Origin: a virus
Virus record (IMG/VR): IMGVR_UViG_3300020048_000024
Coordinates: 64,001-128,000 of that record
Length of the DNA stretch: 64,000 bases
Direction: 5' to 3' (one strand)
This document shows, piece after piece, positions 10,705 to 62,175 of this stretch. The position numbers and the translations under genes were made by a program. The notes under the pieces were generated by a model. It made no database searches and was not told the origin of the DNA. It saw only the letters and a program-made list of their open reading frames with translations. The first letter of the stretch is position 1; the number at the start of each line of letters is the position of its first letter.

Positions 10705-11390
10705 GCTGATTTCAAAAGTGCGGAATCTATAAAAACTGGATCAGTTATTACCAATGTACCATCTGATCTAGCCATAACGTTGGCATCGTGAAGATCGGGT
10801 TCAAAATTTCCAGATTTTATCAATGTTTTTGCTATGTCTAGGGCGTCGATCCATTGAGGATGAGTTGATCCCCAATTTATATAAAAGCTACTATCTTTAT
10901 ATTTTGGACTTTTAGTCATATCGCTTGGCATACCTGTATTTCTTAGTACGCTATTTGACCAATTAATTATTCTTATATCATCACTGTTAGTAATAGGAGT
11001 GAGTTTCTCCATTCTAATAGCTGATACTTCGGGAGTAACAGGAACTATTCGTTTACTAATAAATTTGGGCATGTGTGGATTGTCTGTGTGTTTACGAGCG
11101 GTTGATATCCAAGCAGTATAGGCAGTATCGGTTGAGATAAACACTTTAAGAACATAAGATAATTTTGGATGACTCCATACTGTCCCAAAACCGCCTGAGC
11201 CCAATGGGTGAAATCCATTCTTTAGTAATATATCATGCCATTCAACGCCCATAGGATAAGGACTATCACTATCTCTGATTCTGTTAGGAACAGGCAAATC
11301 TTTGATTTTATTTTTAATACCAACTAGTTCTGTCAATTTTTCTTCATCGATTGAGCTATTGGTTTCGGGCAAGAATTCATGTGATTTCAT
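10701..11390 (-). CDS. Protein-kinase-fold protein (paralog 1)
   Basis: GSGGFGTV Gly loop, VLKV lysine, DLHDAN catalytic loop, TDP; start reassigned to ATG 11390 (MKSHEFLPE), 5 nt after ATAAATA. Confidence 0.75.
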   Translation of the reverse strand: MKSHEFLPETNSSIDEEKLTELVGIKNKIKDLPVPNRIRDSDSPYPMGVEWHDILLKNGFHPLGSGGFGTVWSHPKLSYVLKVFISTDTAYTAWISTARKHTDNPHMPKFISKRIVPVTPEVSAIRMEKLTPITNSDDIRIINWSNSVLRNTGMPSDMTKSPKYKDSSFYINWGSTHPQWIDALDIAKTLIKSGNFEPDLHDANVMARSDGTLVITDPVFIDSALLKSA

Positions 11391-11394
11391 ACTT

Positions 11395-11423
11395 GTATTT
11401 ATCCAAAGTAGTTGACATATGAT
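11395..11423. repeat. 29-bp exact direct repeat, copy 1 (late box on minus strand, TTGACA on plus strand)
   Basis: GTATTTATCCAAAGTAGTTGACATATGAT, identical at 12207-12235. Confidence 0.95.
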
Positions 11424-11543
11424 GATAAGTGGTGGTGATGAATACACAAGACCATCAAATGACTCACAAATTGAATCAATAATTGATAAAGCATTGAAAA
11501 ACTTCAATGATATCGGAGTAATTGAAGTGGCGATTAGTAGACT

Positions 11544-12200
11544 TTAAACTATCCAAGGGTCAATGATCACTGGAGTTCCGTCCGCTCGCGCCATGAAGTT
11601 ATACCCATGTAGGTCTAGTTCATATCCCATTTGATTTGCAATGTCATTAAGTCTGACAATGGTCTTGTAAAATACGTGAACTCCTCTAGGGCCCAGTATA
11701 TTCAAAAGTTTGTCCCATGAATTCTTATATCCCCACACTGGGTACGTTAAAGTTTGTGCCACATCCTCAAAGCTCTCGTTAGCCATTGCTCGATCTGCCA
11801 TTTCTTTGCATAGTTTGCCAATGGCACCAATACTATTCAGACGTTCTTGACGCATCTGTATATAAACATGCCCATTCCAATAGAAACTTTCAAAACCCGA
11901 AAACTTAGGTAGAAATGGATTACTCTTATGATTGTTGCAGTACTTGGCCCAACGAAAGAACATCATATGTTCCTTGGAGAATATAGGCTTAGTATTTTCA
12001 TCATTGGGTGCCAGTGATACATTGTTCTGTGTTCCAAATATCTTAAGTACCAATCCAGTTTCTGGTTCTAGAAATGCGGTTTGATCAACACCCTGACCAA
12101 TCTGCTTATAGCCCTTGTCTATAAGATGATCAACGATAGCTGGATCGGTATCGCTGTATTCGTCTAGTATGGATTCACGTAATATTTCAGATAATTTCAT
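11544..12200 (-). CDS. Protein-kinase-fold protein (paralog 2)
   Basis: GQGVDQTAF, VLKI, DLHGYN, IDP; start reassigned to ATG 12200 (MKLSEILRE). Confidence 0.7.
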   Translation of the reverse strand: MKLSEILRESILDEYSDTDPAIVDHLIDKGYKQIGQGVDQTAFLEPETGLVLKIFGTQNNVSLAPNDENTKPIFSKEHMMFFRWAKYCNNHKSNPFLPKFSGFESFYWNGHVYIQMRQERLNSIGAIGKLCKEMADRAMANESFEDVAQTLTYPVWGYKNSWDKLLNILGPRGVHVFYKTIVRLNDIANQMGYELDLHGYNFMARADGTPVIIDPWIV

Positions 12201-16367: not shown

Positions 16368-16619
16368 ATGAACGAACGAATCGACAAACTGATCGAACAA
16401 TGCACCGTTCAGAACTTTTCTGATTGCATAGGTGGGTATGAAACTTTCGATAAAGAAAAGTTCGCTGAGTTGTTAATCAGAGAATGTCTTGATATCGTTG
16501 ATAGTAGAAATGGATGGATCAATGATGAAAATCAGGATAGTCAGTTTGTGTATGGTTACGAAACGGCTATTCGTCATTGTTCTGTGTTTATCAAAGCACA
16601 TTTTGGAGTTGAAGAATGA
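16368..16619 (+). CDS. MNERI...EKFAEL...HFGVEE family, paralog 1
   Basis: Shared motifs with 16616 and 59799. Confidence 0.8.
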   Translation: MNERIDKLIEQCTVQNFSDCIGGYETFDKEKFAELLIRECLDIVDSRNGWINDENQDSQFVYGYETAIRHCSVFIKAHFGVEE

Positions 16620-16912
16620 ACGAACGAATTAGACAACTTGCCGATCGAGCGCATGTAACTGTTCTTACAACAAAAGGCATGGAGAACGTTTTAGACGGTT
16701 GTTACCTTGTTTCCCCAGATAAATTACAAGAGTTCGCCGAGTTGATTGTGAAAGAATGTGCTAGTATGGCGGCAAACTTTTCTATGGAGAACAAACGCTT
16801 TCATCCTGACAGCGACCCTGTTAATATGCCGATTGGTCAACGTATGGTGTATCATTCTACTTGCCAATCAGTCTCTTATGAGATTAAACAACATTTTGGA
16901 GTTGAACTATGA
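16616..16912 (+). CDS. MNERI family, paralog 2
   Basis: Shared motifs; ATGA coupling. Confidence 0.8.
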   Translation: MNERIRQLADRAHVTVLTTKGMENVLDGCYLVSPDKLQEFAELIVKECASMAANFSMENKRFHPDSDPVNMPIGQRMVYHSTCQSVSYEIKQHFGVEL

Positions 16913-20736: not shown

Positions 20737-21411
20737 ATGAAAGTTAAATTAATTAGTTATTCGCAACCAAGTCAAGAAGTCTTAGAAGAAGGTTTAAAAG
20801 ACGCTCAGGACTTGGTTGCATTTTGTGCGCGAGTTTCAAATCCAAGTAATCAAATGAACACTGAGACTAGTGAGAAGTTGATTAAGTATCTGATCAAACA
20901 TAAACACTGGAGTCCAATGGAAATGGTGTCTGTATGTTTAGAAATAGAAACTACTAGAGATATTGGTCGTCAATTATTACGTCATAGATCATTTTCATTT
21001 CAAGAATTTTCACAACGATACGCAGATCCAACAAAGGATTTGAGTTTTGTCGTTCGTGAAGCTAGACTTCAAGATACAAAGAATCGTCAAAACAGTGTTG
21101 CTTTAGATATGGCAAACGACGATCAACGTCGAATTGCCTATCAATGGGAACAAGGTCAGCTAAATTTGATTAAGCAATCACAAGATTTATATGCTTGGGC
21201 AATTTCCAAGGGTATTGCAAAAGAACAGGCACGAGCAGTGTTACCCGAGGGTCTGACAATGAGTAGATTATACGTCAATGGGCCACTACGTAGCTGGATT
21301 CATTACATTGATGTTAGAGCAGATGAAAGTACTCAACTTGAGCATCGTGAGATTGCACTTGAATGTGCTAGAGTGATTGCTAAAGTATTTCCATTAATAT
21401 CGGATCTTTAA
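20737..21411 (+). CDS. thyX: Flavin-dependent thymidylate synthase
   Basis: RHRSFSFQEFSQRY ThyX motif, H.SP.E, EQAR.VLP. Confidence 0.95.
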   Translation: MKVKLISYSQPSQEVLEEGLKDAQDLVAFCARVSNPSNQMNTETSEKLIKYLIKHKHWSPMEMVSVCLEIETTRDIGRQLLRHRSFSFQEFSQRYADPTKDLSFVVREARLQDTKNRQNSVALDMANDDQRRIAYQWEQGQLNLIKQSQDLYAWAISKGIAKEQARAVLPEGLTMSRLYVNGPLRSWIHYIDVRADESTQLEHREIALECARVIAKVFPLISDL

Positions 21412-21764
21412 TGTCTAATATGCCACTATCATTTATGCATCTAATGCTTAGAGAGTCAATGTCTCGGGAAAGACGAATCAAACCTACTTCATTTAGGCGA
21501 GTCGATGATCATGTAATCGAAGAGTCTGACATGCTAGTTCATGAGTTTACAGTAGATAATATGGAATCGAATCAGATGTTTATCGCACATTCGAACTTAG
21601 ATACTTGGCTAAAGACTGATGAAGGACAATGGATACTAGATAATTGTGTAGAGGCGCCCTATATTGTGTGGTACAAAAATGCAATATACGGTGATTGTAC
21701 ATATCGTATAATTGCTAGACTAGTAGCTCAACATCAAACTTATTTTTTATTGAAATATAAATGA
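21411..21764 (+). CDS. Hypothetical protein, distant member of the LRW-tail family
   Basis: Ends TYFLLKYK; paralogous to the next ORF. Confidence 0.65.
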   Translation: MSNMPLSFMHLMLRESMSRERRIKPTSFRRVDDHVIEESDMLVHEFTVDNMESNQMFIAHSNLDTWLKTDEGQWILDNCVEAPYIVWYKNAIYGDCTYRIIARLVAQHQTYFLLKYK

Positions 21765-22111
21765 AAAATATTAATCAAATTCGTAATGACTATCAGCGTA
21801 CTAGTAACTATGATTTTCACGATTATTCAACTGAGTATAAAATAGTCGAAGATGAAGTAAAGAAAATTACTTCAATTTCGGTATTTAAATTTGAAATTAA
21901 TATATATGATGATCAGATAGGAATTGGGCATAATAATTCAAAATTTCAAGATTGGCTTGAGACAGACGAAGCCATCTGGCTTATGAGCCATAGAATAGAA
22001 GATCCAAAATTTATGAGATATGTGAATCACGAAACATACGCTGACATGATAGAAGTCATAGTTAAATTATACGAAGAACACTCAGTGTATTATGCACTGA
22101 AATGGAGATAA
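21761..22111 (+). CDS. Hypothetical protein, LRW-tail family
   Basis: Ends VYYALKWR; shares WL.TDE..W with the previous ORF. Confidence 0.65.
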   Translation: MKNINQIRNDYQRTSNYDFHDYSTEYKIVEDEVKKITSISVFKFEINIYDDQIGIGHNNSKFQDWLETDEAIWLMSHRIEDPKFMRYVNHETYADMIEVIVKLYEEHSVYYALKWR

Positions 22112-37343: not shown

Positions 37344-37598
37344 ATGAACGAACTAAAAAAGTCTGATCTTAATTTGCCTATTAGTCCATTCTTAGATAAT
37401 GCTACTAATTGGTATCTTAGTACTCATACTAATCCTTACGATGATCATGACTTTCTTTATTCTAAATATCAAGATTGGATGAGTGAACAAGGAGTTGTCA
37501 TTAAGAATCGTGGTCTGAGAAGTACAGATGATGGACGATTTTTAAATTTTGTAGACGAGCAATCAATGATTATCTTCATTTTACGATGGGGAAATTAG
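37344..37598 (+). CDS. LRW-tail family small protein
   Basis: Ends FVDEQSMIIFILRWGN. Confidence 0.7.
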   Translation: MNELKKSDLNLPISPFLDNATNWYLSTHTNPYDDHDFLYSKYQDWMSEQGVVIKNRGLRSTDDGRFLNFVDEQSMIIFILRWGN

Positions 37599-52417: not shown

Positions 52418-52471
52418 TTGACTAATATATAAATTTATACTATAATAGTAGTATATTATAAAGGTATTAAA

Positions 52472-53389: not shown

Positions 53390-53820
53390 TGTTCTGGAAC
53401 AAAAAATTGGTAGATATCATCAAAACTGATACTCGTCTCGACGATATCAAAGCTCAAATGGACGAGATAAATCGTGTATATAAAAATCCTGAAAATGCCT
53501 ATAGCGATATGACCTTAGATCGATGTCAGGATGCTATGGCATTAAATATCGTATCATCCTATTACACCAAGGCTCAACAGTTAGCACGATTTACCAAAGA
53601 CGTTCGTGACTTACGAGCTGTTGTAGAAGGCAACGGCGAATACTGGGGACAGTATCAAGTTAACTATGAAGAATGTCAACAACGATTGGCAAACTCAGAG
53701 CTACACTTAAAACTAGAAAAAGAAATGTATCAGAAAATCTACGAACGAAATCGTAAGTTAGAATCTGAAGTATATGTGTTAAAGCGTGAATTAGAAATTT
53801 TAAAAACGGAGAAAGCATAA
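53389..53820 (+). CDS. Hypothetical coiled-coil protein
   Basis: GAGG RBS; start reassigned. Confidence 0.65.
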   Translation: MFWNKKLVDIIKTDTRLDDIKAQMDEINRVYKNPENAYSDMTLDRCQDAMALNIVSSYYTKAQQLARFTKDVRDLRAVVEGNGEYWGQYQVNYEECQQRLANSELHLKLEKEMYQKIYERNRKLESEVYVLKRELEILKTEKA

Positions 53821-54113
53821 TGTTTGGATTTAACCATAAAACATCCTATCTTCCTGCACCAACTGTCGAGGTTATCAAGGAGCAAAAGATGGATACATCA
53901 GCATACTATACTATTGGGTTAACAACTGATGATCGTACTCAGATCACCTTCGGGCAAGATAGGCATGCCAAATCTAGTCTGACCATGACAGATGATGCCG
54001 TGGCTCATATGATTAGACTGTTGGCAGTTAACATAGCCGACACTCACACGGTTACAGTGACACCGATAGTACAAAACAACGAGTCAGAAGAAACAACAGG
54101 AGAAGTAGAATGA
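53820..54113 (+). CDS. Hypothetical protein
   Basis: GGAG RBS. Confidence 0.7.
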
Positions 54114-55481: not shown

Positions 55482-55852
55482 CATTATTTTATCTATTAAT
55501 CGCACTTCAACTTAAACATTTTATCATTGATTTTCCATTACAGACAAAATATCAATGGTCGAATAAAGGAACATATGGTCATTTAGGCGGTGTATTACAC
55601 GCTGCTCTACATGGTCTAGGAACTTTTACTGTTTTGTTTTTGTTCACTGACGAGCTTACACTGGCTTGGTATATTGCCCTAGCTGATATGTTTATTCATT
55701 ATCACATTGATTGGGCGAAGATGAATATAAATAAAAGATTGGGTTGGGGTCCAACTACACATCCAGAGTTTTGGGTATTGTTAGGTCTAGATCAATTGTT
55801 ACATCAACTAACTTATGTAGGAATGATTTTTGCATTGTATATCTATAAATGA
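55478..55852 (+). CDS. DUF3307-like membrane protein
   Basis: H...DF.LQ, H...H, H..ID, DQ..H. Confidence 0.75.
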   Translation: MTLFYLLIALQLKHFIIDFPLQTKYQWSNKGTYGHLGGVLHAALHGLGTFTVLFLFTDELTLAWYIALADMFIHYHIDWAKMNINKRLGWGPTTHPEFWVLLGLDQLLHQLTYVGMIFALYIYK

Positions 55853-57292
55853 AATCAATTAAAGATTTTGTTAGGGAATATCTTAACAGTAGGGCTGAGC
55901 TTGGTAATTTATATAATCAACCTCATTCTTTGAAAGACTGGAACAAAATCTTAGAGTCTGGTGGCTATATCAGCGTTCAATTTCGAAATACAACCGACGG
56001 AACTCGTCAGATAGCACAATGGTGTTGTGAGAAGTTCGGAGCAGAACACTACTATTGGACAGGTGGGGTATTTTGGTTTGAAACAGAGAAAGCGGCAGTA
56101 TTATTTGCACTGAGATGGGTATGATGACTGAATACGAATCACAACATAGTTACTGGCAGAAAGATCATGATGAGATCATAGCCGAAATGCAAGTAGAAAA
56201 AGCACAGTTAGAAAAATATCTTCATCGAATTAAAGTATCAGATGATGCATTATCTGATGCTGAATGGTTTGAACGATGGAACTGGTGTGGTAAGAATTTT
56301 GTCAAGGAAACTTATCGATATAGATTTGGATGTTTTCAATTTGAGCATGAACAAGATGCTGTATTATTTATATTGAGGTGGGTATGACAGACTTTAAACT
56401 AAGGAAAGTTGTAGTTGGGGGCAAGCGCGCTCCCACTCACTCTAATTTTTGTATAGATTCTATAGAGAAAAATACTATCACTATAATTAGAGTTGGTGAC
56501 GGTGACAGAAAATATATTGAAATGGAAGAATGGTTAACCAAACACGGTGCGACTAAGATTGGTTATTATAATGGTTATGAGTTTTGTCCGGTCTATAATG
56601 TCACCGACGAAATTAAAGTAATATTTGCACTGAGATGGGCATGATAAATCATATAGAATTTCCATATAAGATACAGGTACTACCCACTCATCATGATGAA
56701 AGTTTATATCTTTCGTGGATCGATCATAGTATATGGTGTAAAAAACACATTGATCGCAAAACATTTGAGCATGGTGAGAGAGGGCAGTTTTATTTTAAGA
56801 ATGAACAAGACGCAGTATTATTTGCATTGAGGTGGGCATGAAATTGAATACGAAATTAAATACTAATAGATCGTCAGTTAAACGAGCCTTACAATGGCTA
56901 GAAAACGAGTTGTTTCTGTATACAGACGAGGAGCTATACTTAGAGTTTGAAAAAAGAATGAATTGTAAATTTTCAGAAGACAAAACTGAAATTACTTTCA
57001 TTACTGAGAATTTAAAATATTGGTTTACTGCTAGATGGAAGTAGAATATGATTTGTTTCCGTATACAAAACCAGTATTGAGTAAATTTCCATATTCTATC
57101 ATAATGACGTATGAAAAGCTCGCACATATGCCAGAACTTGAGCCTAGATGTGAATGGCTTGATAAAACACTCAATACACGCTGGGGAGAGCAATATCTGT
57201 ATCATCGTCGAATTAGTTTTGGAGTCAAACAAGTAGTTTGGTATTTTGTCAAAGAAGAAGATATGACGCTTTTTTCTCTAAGATGGATGTAA
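55849..57292 (+). other. Tandem array of six translationally coupled LRW-tail paralogs (starts 55849, 56121, 56384, 56641, 56838, 57035)
   Basis: C-termini VLFALRWV, VLFILRWV, VIFALRWA, VLFALRWA, YWFTARWK, TLFSLRWM; 30-nt DNA repeats at the junctions. Confidence 0.85.
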
Positions 57293-57356
57293 ATAATGAT
57301 TGACAATTAATGATTATTTTGCTATAATATAGTTCACACTTAATTAAGGAAGTATA

Positions 57357-57482
57357 ATGAAAATTCAACATTCGTGGGAATATTGCTCAGAAGCAGTATT
57401 TATGAAGCGAGTATTTAAGCATAGTATGTATCAATTGGTCTCGGTGTTTGTTTTAATTGGAGTTATTGCTCTAAACTCTTAA
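57357..57482 (+). CDS. Small membrane peptide (not in ORF track)
   Basis: sigma70 promoter at 57300, TAAGGA RBS, hydrophobic C-terminus. Confidence 0.5.
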   Translation: MKIQHSWEYCSEAVFMKRVFKHSMYQLVSVFVLIGVIALNS

Positions 57483-57485
57483 AAG

Positions 57486-57562
57486 TGTTGTATTTTTACA
57501 ACACTTTTAGTTGACATTTAATAGCTTTTTTAGTATAATATTTATAATGAAAAGGATAAATA
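57486..57562 (+). promoter_or_regulatory. Palindrome plus sigma70 promoter plus late box
   Basis: TGTTG-N8-CAACA, 7 bp gap, TTGACA(57511)-17-TATAAT, ATAAATA(57556). Confidence 0.85.
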
Positions 57563-59592: not shown

Positions 59593-59802
59593 ATGAAACA
59601 TAGTCTTGTTAAATTTAAAGACGGTACATTCGGTGTCATGAAGAGATATATATGGCTTTCTCGGGAAGAATTTTTAGGCGTAGACAATCATGAATGGTGG
59701 TCTATGCCTTATATGATAGTTAAATATTGCAAATTCAAAACTCAAGAAGAAGCTGAAGCTGCCATACTTTGTATAGACATTAGTTATACGGTGATTAAAT
59801 GA
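59593..59802 (+). CDS. Hypothetical protein
   Basis: ORF. Confidence 0.65.
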   Translation: MKHSLVKFKDGTFGVMKRYIWLSREEFLGVDNHEWWSMPYMIVKYCKFKTQEEAEAAILCIDISYTVIK

Positions 59803-60029
59803 ACGAACGAATTCGAGAACTTGCTGACAAGGCTACTACAAAATTCTTTAACGAAGACGGTAGCGGATTTCGTACATTCAGTCGTGAAAAGTTTGCAGAG
59901 TTGATTGTTCTGGAATGTGCAGGAGTTTGTTTAGAAAGAGCATCTCAATATCAAGTCAATCATCTTATAACTGATGAAGCGATATTTTGTTCGATTCGGA
60001 TTAAACAACATTTCGGAGTAGAAGAATGA
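59799..60029 (+). CDS. MNERI family, paralog 3
   Basis: MNERIRELA, EKFAELIV.EC, IKQHFGVEE. Confidence 0.8.
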   Translation: MNERIRELADKATTKFFNEDGSGFRTFSREKFAELIVLECAGVCLERASQYQVNHLITDEAIFCSIRIKQHFGVEE

Positions 60030-61467: not shown

Positions 61468-61973
61468 AAGATAAATTTGTAGATTTGTATATGAAACTGG
61501 CTCAAGATGTTAGCCAATTGAGCTACGCACGTAGACTTAAAGTAGGCACAGTTATCGTCAAAGATAATATAGTAACATATGGGTATAATGGTACACCAAG
61601 TGGATGGGATAATAACTGTGAGTTTCATGAGTATGCGGACAAATATGAAAAATATGATGTTGTTAGCTTTGATTTTCCGTTAAACGACTCTGATCCGTTA
61701 TCTGATGATGGATATGGTAGAGATACATGGTATCGATTAAAAACAAAACCAGAAGTATTGCATTCAGAGGCAAACGCTTTAATGAAAATTGCTAAGTCTA
61801 CCATTAACAGCGAGGGTGCAACACTATTTTGTACACATTCATCGTGTATTGATTGTGCTAAGATGATTTATCAAGCAGGCATTTTTACAGTATATTACAG
61901 AGATGAATACAAAAGTACTGATGGTATAGAGTTTCTTGAAAAAAGCGGAGTTGATGTTAAACGATACAAATAG
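61464..61973 (+). CDS. dCMP deaminase
   Basis: VG.VIV, GYNG.P.G, HSE.NA, C.DC. Confidence 0.92.
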   Translation: MKDKFVDLYMKLAQDVSQLSYARRLKVGTVIVKDNIVTYGYNGTPSGWDNNCEFHEYADKYEKYDVVSFDFPLNDSDPLSDDGYGRDTWYRLKTKPEVLHSEANALMKIAKSTINSEGATLFCTHSSCIDCAKMIYQAGIFTVYYRDEYKSTDGIEFLEKSGVDVKRYK

Positions 61974-62175
61974 TATTTCACTGTACATAAGTTTTGGTGA
62001 ACTAAAGAATGTAATTAGTTGGTGTCAAAATAATTGTCAATCTGATTGGACGTTTGATTATGACGGGCATTCATCAGAAGAACTTCTTCGAACTCCGGAC
62101 TCACATGGTAGTAACTATGCATTCAAATTCGATAATGAAGAAGATGTGACATTGTTTATATTAAAATGGAAATAA
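61954..62175 (+). CDS. LRW-tail family small protein
   Basis: WC...C...W; ends FKFDNEEDVTLFILKWK. Confidence 0.75.
   Translation: MLNDTNSISLYISFGELKNVISWCQNNCQSDWTFDYDGHSSEELLRTPDSHGSNYAFKFDNEEDVTLFILKWK

Follow-up and report, generated by a model that had tools for sequence, protein, structure and literature searches.

The hyperplastic regions of T4-type phages are subject to modular shuffling mediated by PeSL (promoter-early stem-loop) cassettes (PMC2839356; PMC4122927). In large phages such regions are crowded with small orphan genes, and it is only partly understood how these genes stay expressed under constant reshuffling. We describe an array of small genes in an uncultured giant T4-like phage, within the viral record IMGVR_UViG_3300020048_000024, a linear IMG/VR record of 159,889 bp with a completeness of about 45% (CheckV). 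The stretch analysed, here called the window, represents bases 64001-128000 of the record (64,000 nucleotides, nt), and the array (array B) occupies window positions 55849-57292. The reading that we favor, and hold to be probable, is that this is one of at least three tandem arrays wherein the tail, which forms the end of a conserved protein domain, doubles as the initiation region of the next gene and as a patch for the exchange of units. The same ~24 bases would serve as invariant C-terminus, as ribosome-binding site and start of the following gene, and as the homology used for unit exchange; any unit could therefore follow any other without losing its translation.

The array was noticed in a first-pass annotation made from the sequence, which reported tails at spacings of 263, 257, 197, 203 and 248 bp, four of them good and two degenerate (57015 and 57263), joined by highly divergent bodies. 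Open reading frame (ORF) calls and a search with a tail pattern reproduced these positions and spacings along with both degenerate copies, and the identity between unit bodies, outside the tail, was 15-33%. Six consecutive ORFs run head-to-tail on the plus strand (Table 1). A degenerate 23-nt tail pattern was present in exactly four copies (ending at 56124, 56387, 56644 and 56841) versus 0.00 expected in 100 shuffles; an exact 30-mer gave two copies at <=3 mismatches. The four good copies all end NNA-TGA with the stop overlapped by the ATG of the next gene, and the resulting ATGA is found at four of the five junctions in the window, with the motif GAGRTGG 5 nt upstream. The array is real and far beyond chance.

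The codons for Leu-Arg-Trp near the end of the tail, written NTG-AGR-TGG, spell this Shine-Dalgarno (SD)-like GAGRTGG, and the GAGG/GAGGTG core is complementary to the 3' end of 16S rRNA. Tails were counted in the source genome and five other phage contigs (59 tails). The Leu codon was NTG in 38 of 43 tails overlapped by a following gene, versus 2 of 16 tails that were not overlapped (Fisher p 8e-8); for the source genome alone the counts were 13/13 and 1/8 (Fisher p 7e-5), and Arg was encoded by AGR in 12 of its 13 overlapped tails. Genome-wide, NTG codons total 23% for Leu (TTA 41%, TTG 18%, CTG 5%), and Arg is encoded by AGA at 47% and by AGG at 1%. At L005, L006 and L007, AGG is the codon in 12 of the 14 overlapped tails that have Arg, though it represents 0.7-7% of Arg codons in these other phages; the rare codons AGG and CTG are both strongly enriched in tails. 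The suggestion in the first-pass annotation that the Leu-Arg-Trp codons and the last codon double as the SD and start of the next gene appears to hold, as the choice of NTG-AGR tracks the presence of an overlapping gene. The tail of unit 6 has neither NTG nor ATGA, which is expected since no coupled gene comes after it.

Codon choice was also assessed column by column, using tail columns with the same amino acid and comparing the chance that two units share a codon with that predicted from the codon usage of the genome. Codons -15 to -9 were at expectation (e.g., 0.64 vs 0.63, 0.75 vs 0.68, 0.18 vs 0.35). Within codons -8 to -1, codon identity was in excess at six of the seven variable positions: Val, 0.61 vs 0.34; Leu, 0.51 vs 0.26; Phe, 0.88 vs 0.63; Ala, 0.67 vs 0.35; Arg, 0.75 vs 0.34; and the last codon, 1.0 vs 0.35. 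At the -4 Leu codon identity was at expectation (0.27 vs 0.26), and the bias there is a shift to G-ending codons. Synonymous sites of the tail are thus conserved beyond protein need, as would be anticipated from the first-pass annotation, but only in the last 8 codons. We infer from these codon statistics that the tail bases are maintained to supply the following unit with its SD and start. The junction RNAs were without stable structure (z -0.6 to +1.5) and matched no Rfam family.

A second family of small genes (16368-16619, 16616-16912 and 59799-60029, and L002:681-911 on the minus strand), with N-terminus MNERIR... and C-terminus ...HFGVEE, offers a parallel, in that its conserved protein tail would likewise provide the initiation site for the gene behind it. 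Within this tail, TTYGGAGTWGAAGA and then ATGA, lie an SD (GGAG) and, overlapping it, the start of that following gene.

Relatives were found by scanning viral contigs for tail DNA, which gave eight loci with similar arrays. Array content and order vary among these relatives, contrary to the fixed arrangement that the first-pass annotation had named as a ground for refuting its idea: the site syntenic with array B holds 6 units in the window, 5 in relative G001 and 13 in relative G002. G001 is syntenic with the window at ~87% nucleotide identity, and its array consists of unit 1, a chimeric unit 2 (the first ~23 amino acids (aa) near-identical to those of the window and the remainder different), a new 159-aa unit, and units 5 and 6, with units 3-4 replaced. 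The block replaced in G001 is window 56189-56787; homology ends 67 nt into unit 2, the body of unit 4 is missing, and homology resumes at 56788 in the conserved tail region of unit 4. The flanks of the G002 locus are 68-83% identical to those of the window, and its array-B site includes homologs of the array-A units of the source genome. Array C, with 6 units and a decayed slot in the source genome, is represented by 2 units in G002 with both edges at tails; homology extends precisely as far as the first unit's stop codon, and is picked up again 24 nt ahead of that of the last unit. The cleanest comparison, between loci L003 and L007 (flanks 96-97% identical), revealed a difference of exactly one unit. 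The tail forms a direct repeat of ~24 nt here, within which the indel junction falls; its sequence is TTG AGG TGG CAA TGA where the unit comes after it, and TTA AGA TGG CAG TAA where it does not. Altogether five of six mapped block edges fall within the tail/junction zone: for the one clean indel these alignments place unit gain or loss at the shared patch, and four more edges appear compatible with it.

Units 5 and 6 are under purifying selection, with ratios of nonsynonymous to synonymous substitution rates (dN/dS) relative to G001 of 0.20 and 0.11, respectively. Unit 1 (55849-56121 vs L019:3489-3761) differs from that of G001 by 2 synonymous and 9 non-synonymous changes (dS 0.04, dN/dS ~1.1), and the genes neighbouring it have dS of 0.15-0.6. 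Although the counts are small, this mosaic suggests recent exchange across this stretch, together with relaxed or diversifying change.

The 160-kb record contains 21 tail-bearing ORFs, comprising three arrays and scattered copies, of which 17 were confirmed by profile and one was borderline. The E-values for units 1-4 and 6 were obtained with an independent hidden Markov model (HMM) built from arrays A and C only, which recognised these five units and both scattered copies within the window (E 4e-12 to 7e-5). Unit 5 was the borderline case, with no match to the arrays-A/C HMM and E 0.02 with a deeper profile. Four dispersed members had been listed in the first-pass annotation: those at 37344 and 61954 belong to the family, while the ORFs at 21411 and 21761 (21411..22111, plus strand) were rejected, with profile E 3.3 and 0.2 and deeper-profile E 18 and 2.3; these two are adjacent, are paralogs of each other and end ...LK[YW]. 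Between two of the array C units lies a slot (L002:3825-4045, minus strand; genome about 156825-157045) of family length and with the family tail, which has TGA at all four expected Trp positions, including the Trp of Leu-Arg-Trp. A suppressor tRNA was considered for this TGA-riddled slot and rejected, there being no tRNA gene in the 160-kb record.

When the family profile was run against 1.84 billion representative proteins, 1,756 clusters (metagenome proteins clustered at 50% identity) were matched at E<=1e-3. Almost without exception the proteins are 56-155 aa long and match the domain at their C-terminus, a few are two fused copies, no cluster among these matches carried a Pfam domain, and "hypothetical protein" was the only name given to them. 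The arrays thus belong to a previously undescribed and very large protein family, confined to phages, which comprises at least 1,756 clusters and has no name in any database. ESM Atlas holds unit 4, and its look-alike clusters are all viral "hypothetical protein". Profile searches of whole records gave six weak matches in the jumbo Agrobacterium phage Atu_ph07 and no family member in T4 or KVP40. For 112 members, searched singly or as a profile, there was no meaningful Pfam or PHROG match; a PDB sequence search with the family found no relative, and a marginal PDB match to FaRel2 (E 0.1) vanished with the deeper profile. Curated anti-defence/defence or named phage families gave no match in Pfam, PHROGs or PDB (the PADLOC and NCBIfam libraries were not scanned). 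Against GenBank phages, tblastn of one member returned nothing, and the only blastn match of the region, 79 nt long and to Aeromonas phage APT65, was not within the array. A search for related loci with the neighbouring 246-aa protein also returned nothing.

Conservation within the family reaches beyond the tail, the alignment showing an invariant Trp in a W..WC..FG helix ~35 residues upstream of F.F..E.DA.LFALRW. With a 112-sequence alignment, AlphaFold2 modelled a 70-aa member as strand, helix, strand, strand, helix at a predicted local distance difference test score (pLDDT) of 81; for a second member, mean pLDDT over blocks of 10 residues was 82 to 95 in the ~50-aa domain and 52-59 in the N-terminal extension of 30 residues. 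The conserved residues occupy mostly hydrophobic core positions. Structure prediction, one of the checks put forward in the first-pass annotation, thus returned a compact β-α-β-β-α domain, and the models show the tail as strand 3 and helix 2 of this predicted ~50-aa fold. Foldseek gave no match to PDB at E<=1e-3; VIA-align gave generic two-layer alpha/beta sandwiches only (best Z 5.8, within background); and a BFVD fold search gave uncharacterized phage proteins only. The predicted fold points to no function, and early, dispensable host-interaction factors are the most reasonable guess for the role of these proteins.

Some members carry a piece of capsid protein ahead of the domain. A T4-type major capsid protein, resembling T4 gp23, is encoded elsewhere in the record (Pfam Gp23, 149 and 118 bits), and matches to the Gp23 profile were found in three array-A units (Table 1); two of these three match the phage's own capsid protein by BLAST (1e-8, 1e-6). 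The match recurs in 5 of 33 longer members from unrelated metagenomes, including P0014, P0015 and P0087 (above the Gp23 gathering score, profile 5-57) and, weakly, P0105 (profile 305-326, E 0.025); a related 114-aa cluster of the ESM Atlas has Gp23 in 13% of its members. None of the six window units holds a Gp23/capsid piece, and full-length Gp23 (PF07068, a 376-position profile) was not matched, the matches being only short pieces in 85-145-aa proteins. Similarity of these copies to the capsid protein of the phage itself does not exceed their similarity to that of T4, and because of this they are considered old and conserved rather than fresh debris. The capsid-like segment aligns to T4 gp23 residues ~93-125, and we take it to be Gol (T4 residues about 93-122). 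In a T4 review, no part of gp23 is described as more conserved than the 29-residue Gol region, which binds EF-Tu and licenses Lit cleavage (PMC3014915). The capsid-like peptide was modelled as flexible in front of the confident domain. Gene-fragment capture as a general origin of the bodies was rejected, as only the capsid gene was matched and in only two array-A members. The major capsid gene (L023:1042-2118, minus strand; genome about 11061-12137) has a short run of N where the profile 138-222 fragment would align; the whole record contains 10 N bases. We regard the capsid pieces as a lead and not as a function, albeit a concrete and testable lead to the binding targets of some members.

Table 1. 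Positions of array units, tails, arrays and scattered members; coordinates are window positions unless marked as genome, and HMM E-values are from the arrays-A/C model.
Feature	Coordinates	Strand	Description
Unit 1	55849..56124	+	91 aa; full family domain; tail ...LFALRWV; ATGA overlap with unit 2; HMM E 1e-9; ortholog in G001
Unit 2	56121..56387	+	88 aa; first ~23 aa common to chimeric G001 counterpart, remainder different; HMM E 5e-8
Unit 3	56384..56644	+	86 aa; not in G001; HMM E 7e-5
Unit 4	56641..56841	+	66 aa; minimal, approximately only the predicted beta-alpha-beta-beta-alpha domain; HMM E 4e-12
Unit 5	56838..57044	+	68 aa; divergent; degenerate tail ...FTARWK, stop TAG, no SD-like NTG; conserved in G001
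Unit 6	57035..57292	+	85 aa; last unit; tail CTA AGA TGG ATG TAA (no NTG, no ATGA); HMM E 1e-7
Tail/junction 1	56102..56124	+	last codons of unit 1; SD-like GAGATGG; ATGA start of unit 2
Tail/junction 2	56365..56387	+	GAGGTGG form
Tail/junction 3	56622..56644	+	match to 23-nt tail pattern
Tail/junction 4	56819..56841	+	GAGGTGG form; right edge of block replaced in G001
Array end	57300..57539	+	two 12/12 sigma-70-type promoters (57300-57328, 57511-57539), 41-aa ORF, hairpin 57484-57505
Array A	genome 25468-27032	-	5 units, directly downstream of SMC_N-like 622-aa ORF
Array B	55849-57292	+	6 units
Array C	genome 155615-157269	-	6 units and decayed slot
Dispersed member	37344..37598	+	84 aa; uncoupled tail TTA CGA TGG; HMM E 1e-5
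Dispersed member	61954..62175	+	73 aa; uncoupled tail TTA AAA TGG; HMM E 1e-7; ortholog in G001
Array A 145-aa unit	within genome 25468-27029	-	Pfam Gp23 32 bits (gathering 24.4), profile 6-60, N-terminal part
Array A 85-aa unit	within genome 25468-27029	-	Gp23 profile 6-34, E 0.03, N-terminal part
Array A 113-aa unit	within genome 25468-27029	-	Gp23 profile 138-222, E 4e-4, N-terminal part

In the mechanism that we propose, each unit would encode a small protein built around the predicted ~50-aa domain, with the 3' end of the gene specifying the last strand and helix. Where a gene comes after, Leu-Arg-Trp would be held as NTG-AGR-TGG, giving GAGRTGG in front of an ATG that overlaps the stop, and ribosomes would read the whole array, without intergenic DNA, off a single early transcript, with termination-reinitiation coupling each unit to the next. 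Because every unit ends in the same ~24-nt patch, homologous recombination at the tail, whether unequal or between genomes, would remove, add or swap whole units in frame. The products would presumably be early, non-essential host-interaction factors under diversifying turnover.

Several points weigh against this mechanism. The ATGA overlap alone may suffice for coupling, and most tails in the source genome are GAGATGG, with an internal mismatch to the anti-SD; moreover, since the tails are paralogs of one another, their codons do not amount to independent counts. To find edges at tails is in part to be expected, as tails are the only sequence common to non-orthologous units, and selection for intact genes alone could put surviving breakpoints at gene borders. 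The claim of the first-pass annotation that recombination at the tail adds, removes or shuffles units is supported by the one-unit indel within the tail repeat, but one replacement breakpoint (the block edge at window 56188) lies inside a gene body and not at a tail. The proposed function is without homology support (no Pfam, PHROG, PDB-sequence or specific fold match), and coupling, expression and recombination alike rest wholly on comparison. A rival explanation is a plain tandem family of paralogs, in which the tail is conserved only as structural core, ATGA is a habit of the genome, and the tail has no special role in translation or recombination. Codons -15 to -9 agree only as often as codon usage would predict, most conserved residues occupy the hydrophobic core, and of the 44 ATGA overlaps counted in the record most lie outside the family, many of them lacking an SD-like motif; yet plain paralogy leaves the dependence of the Leu and Arg codons on an overlapping gene, the strong enrichment of rare AGG and CTG, the excess synonymous identity of the last 8 codons and the one-unit indel inside the tail repeat without explanation, and we consider it rather unlikely. 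Reading the repeats as non-coding regulatory or RNA elements with incidental ORFs agrees with their being short and periodic, but is extremely improbable: units 5 and 6 evolve at dN/dS 0.11-0.20, there are thousands of protein-level relatives, the fold is confidently predicted, and neither an Rfam match nor stable RNA structure was found; protein-level conservation already refutes it.

The remaining explanations concern what the proteins do. The first-pass annotation suggested that the tail may be a motif docking on a common partner, with the bodies diversifying as in an adaptor or anti-defence library. The many divergent paralogs per genome, the rapid turnover of units, the early-promoter context, the small size of the proteins and the dN/dS near 1 of unit 1 would all suit a library of this kind; the separable docking motif fares poorly, however, as the tail is predicted to be a core strand and helix, buried in a compact domain that includes the conserved helix ~35 aa upstream, and the Pfam, PHROG, BFVD and PDB searches found no partner or known anti-defence homolog. 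We consider this explanation unlikely. A further possibility, speculative and to our minds improbable, is that the family is a display scaffold, in which the rigid ~50-aa domain carries exchangeable N-terminal peptides. A recurrent subfamily would copy the least mutable capsid segments, including the Gol equivalent; the proteins would be made early as decoys that intercept host factors or immune sensors, and the tail would reshuffle the decoys. The recurrence of capsid pieces above the gathering score in three members from unrelated phages and in array A of the source genome, the alignment of the segment with so conserved a region of gp23, and the flexible modelling of the peptide ahead of a confident domain are the grounds for this proposal; against it, capsid pieces occur in a minority only (5/33 long forms and none of the six window units), and if an epitope activates an abortive-infection sensor, a copy of it should set that sensor off rather than block it. 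If the proposal were true, the phage would possess a decoy library that is reshuffled via a self-coupling tail without touching expression. The mechanism of coupling and exchange at the tail, as set out above, remains the reading that we prefer.

The genes upstream of array B encode a Clp protease (PF00574), a DUF3307 membrane protein and an unnamed protein of 246 aa, and a metallophosphoesterase gene lies downstream. A 97-aa ORF upstream of the Clp protease gene (window 53820-54113) is not in G001; an extra 116-120-aa ORF is located between the Clp protease and 246-aa genes in G001 (L019:2002-2364) and in G002 (reverse complement L020, 1956-2306). In addition to the promoters at the array end, sigma-70-type promoters at 11/12 were found at 52418 and 59077, and from these flanking promoters array B looks like part of an early-gene region. 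Window 57295-57483, containing a promoter and the 41-aa ORF, is missing from G001, which has the hairpin and one promoter only (L019:4960-5062).

The array may be compared with several described systems. Its predicted fold has the same beta-alpha-beta-beta-alpha order as RRM/ferredoxin-like domains, and weak RRM, KH, ACT and DCoH matches were obtained at Z 4.5-5.8 (RRMs ~4.9); but the array domain is without a fourth strand and without sequence relationship to these domains, and no match was above background. Some members share with the Gol/Lit system of T4 a capsid segment aligned with the Gol-equivalent region; whereas Gol itself sits in the capsid protein, the family copies sit in small early-region proteins, in a minority of members and in no window unit. 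Poxvirus-type gene accordions and viral multigene families resemble the array in that close relatives carry unequal numbers of copies of one family at a locus; the K3L-type accordion of poxviruses, however, has recent near-identical copies under acute selection, whereas the array units are old divergent paralogs (15-33%), and no evidence of transient expansion was obtained for the array. Translationally coupled overlapping genes have the same four-base overlap, with an SD inside the upstream coding region and no intergenic DNA. The array differs from ordinary coupled genes in that its putative SD and start sit within invariant residues of a protein family, each unit would bring the initiation site for the next unit, and the codon choice switches off when none comes after.

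The closest known system is the PeSL-mediated modular shuffling of T4-type phages, where small non-essential ORFs are likewise gained, lost or replaced via short flanking repeats that carry expression signals; in the arrays, indels and replacements between close relatives are bounded by repeats, bar one edge. A true hairpin plus promoter motif bounds array B at window 57293-57545, and it is here that a promoter plus ORF unit differs between the window and G001, in agreement with the mechanism known from T4-type phages (PMC2839356). The junctions internal to the array had no intergenic DNA, no promoter at >=10/12 and no stable hairpin, and a repeat of the PeSL type was seen only at the outer border. 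Whereas the PeSL repeat is an intergenic promoter/terminator, the array repeat is the coding sequence of a C-terminal helix that would carry the translation signals (SD and start) of the following gene. The array differs from PeSL cassettes in having a coding, translation-level repeat. It would carry the principle of PeSL, where the signals are for transcription and lie between genes, over to signals for translation that lie within them.

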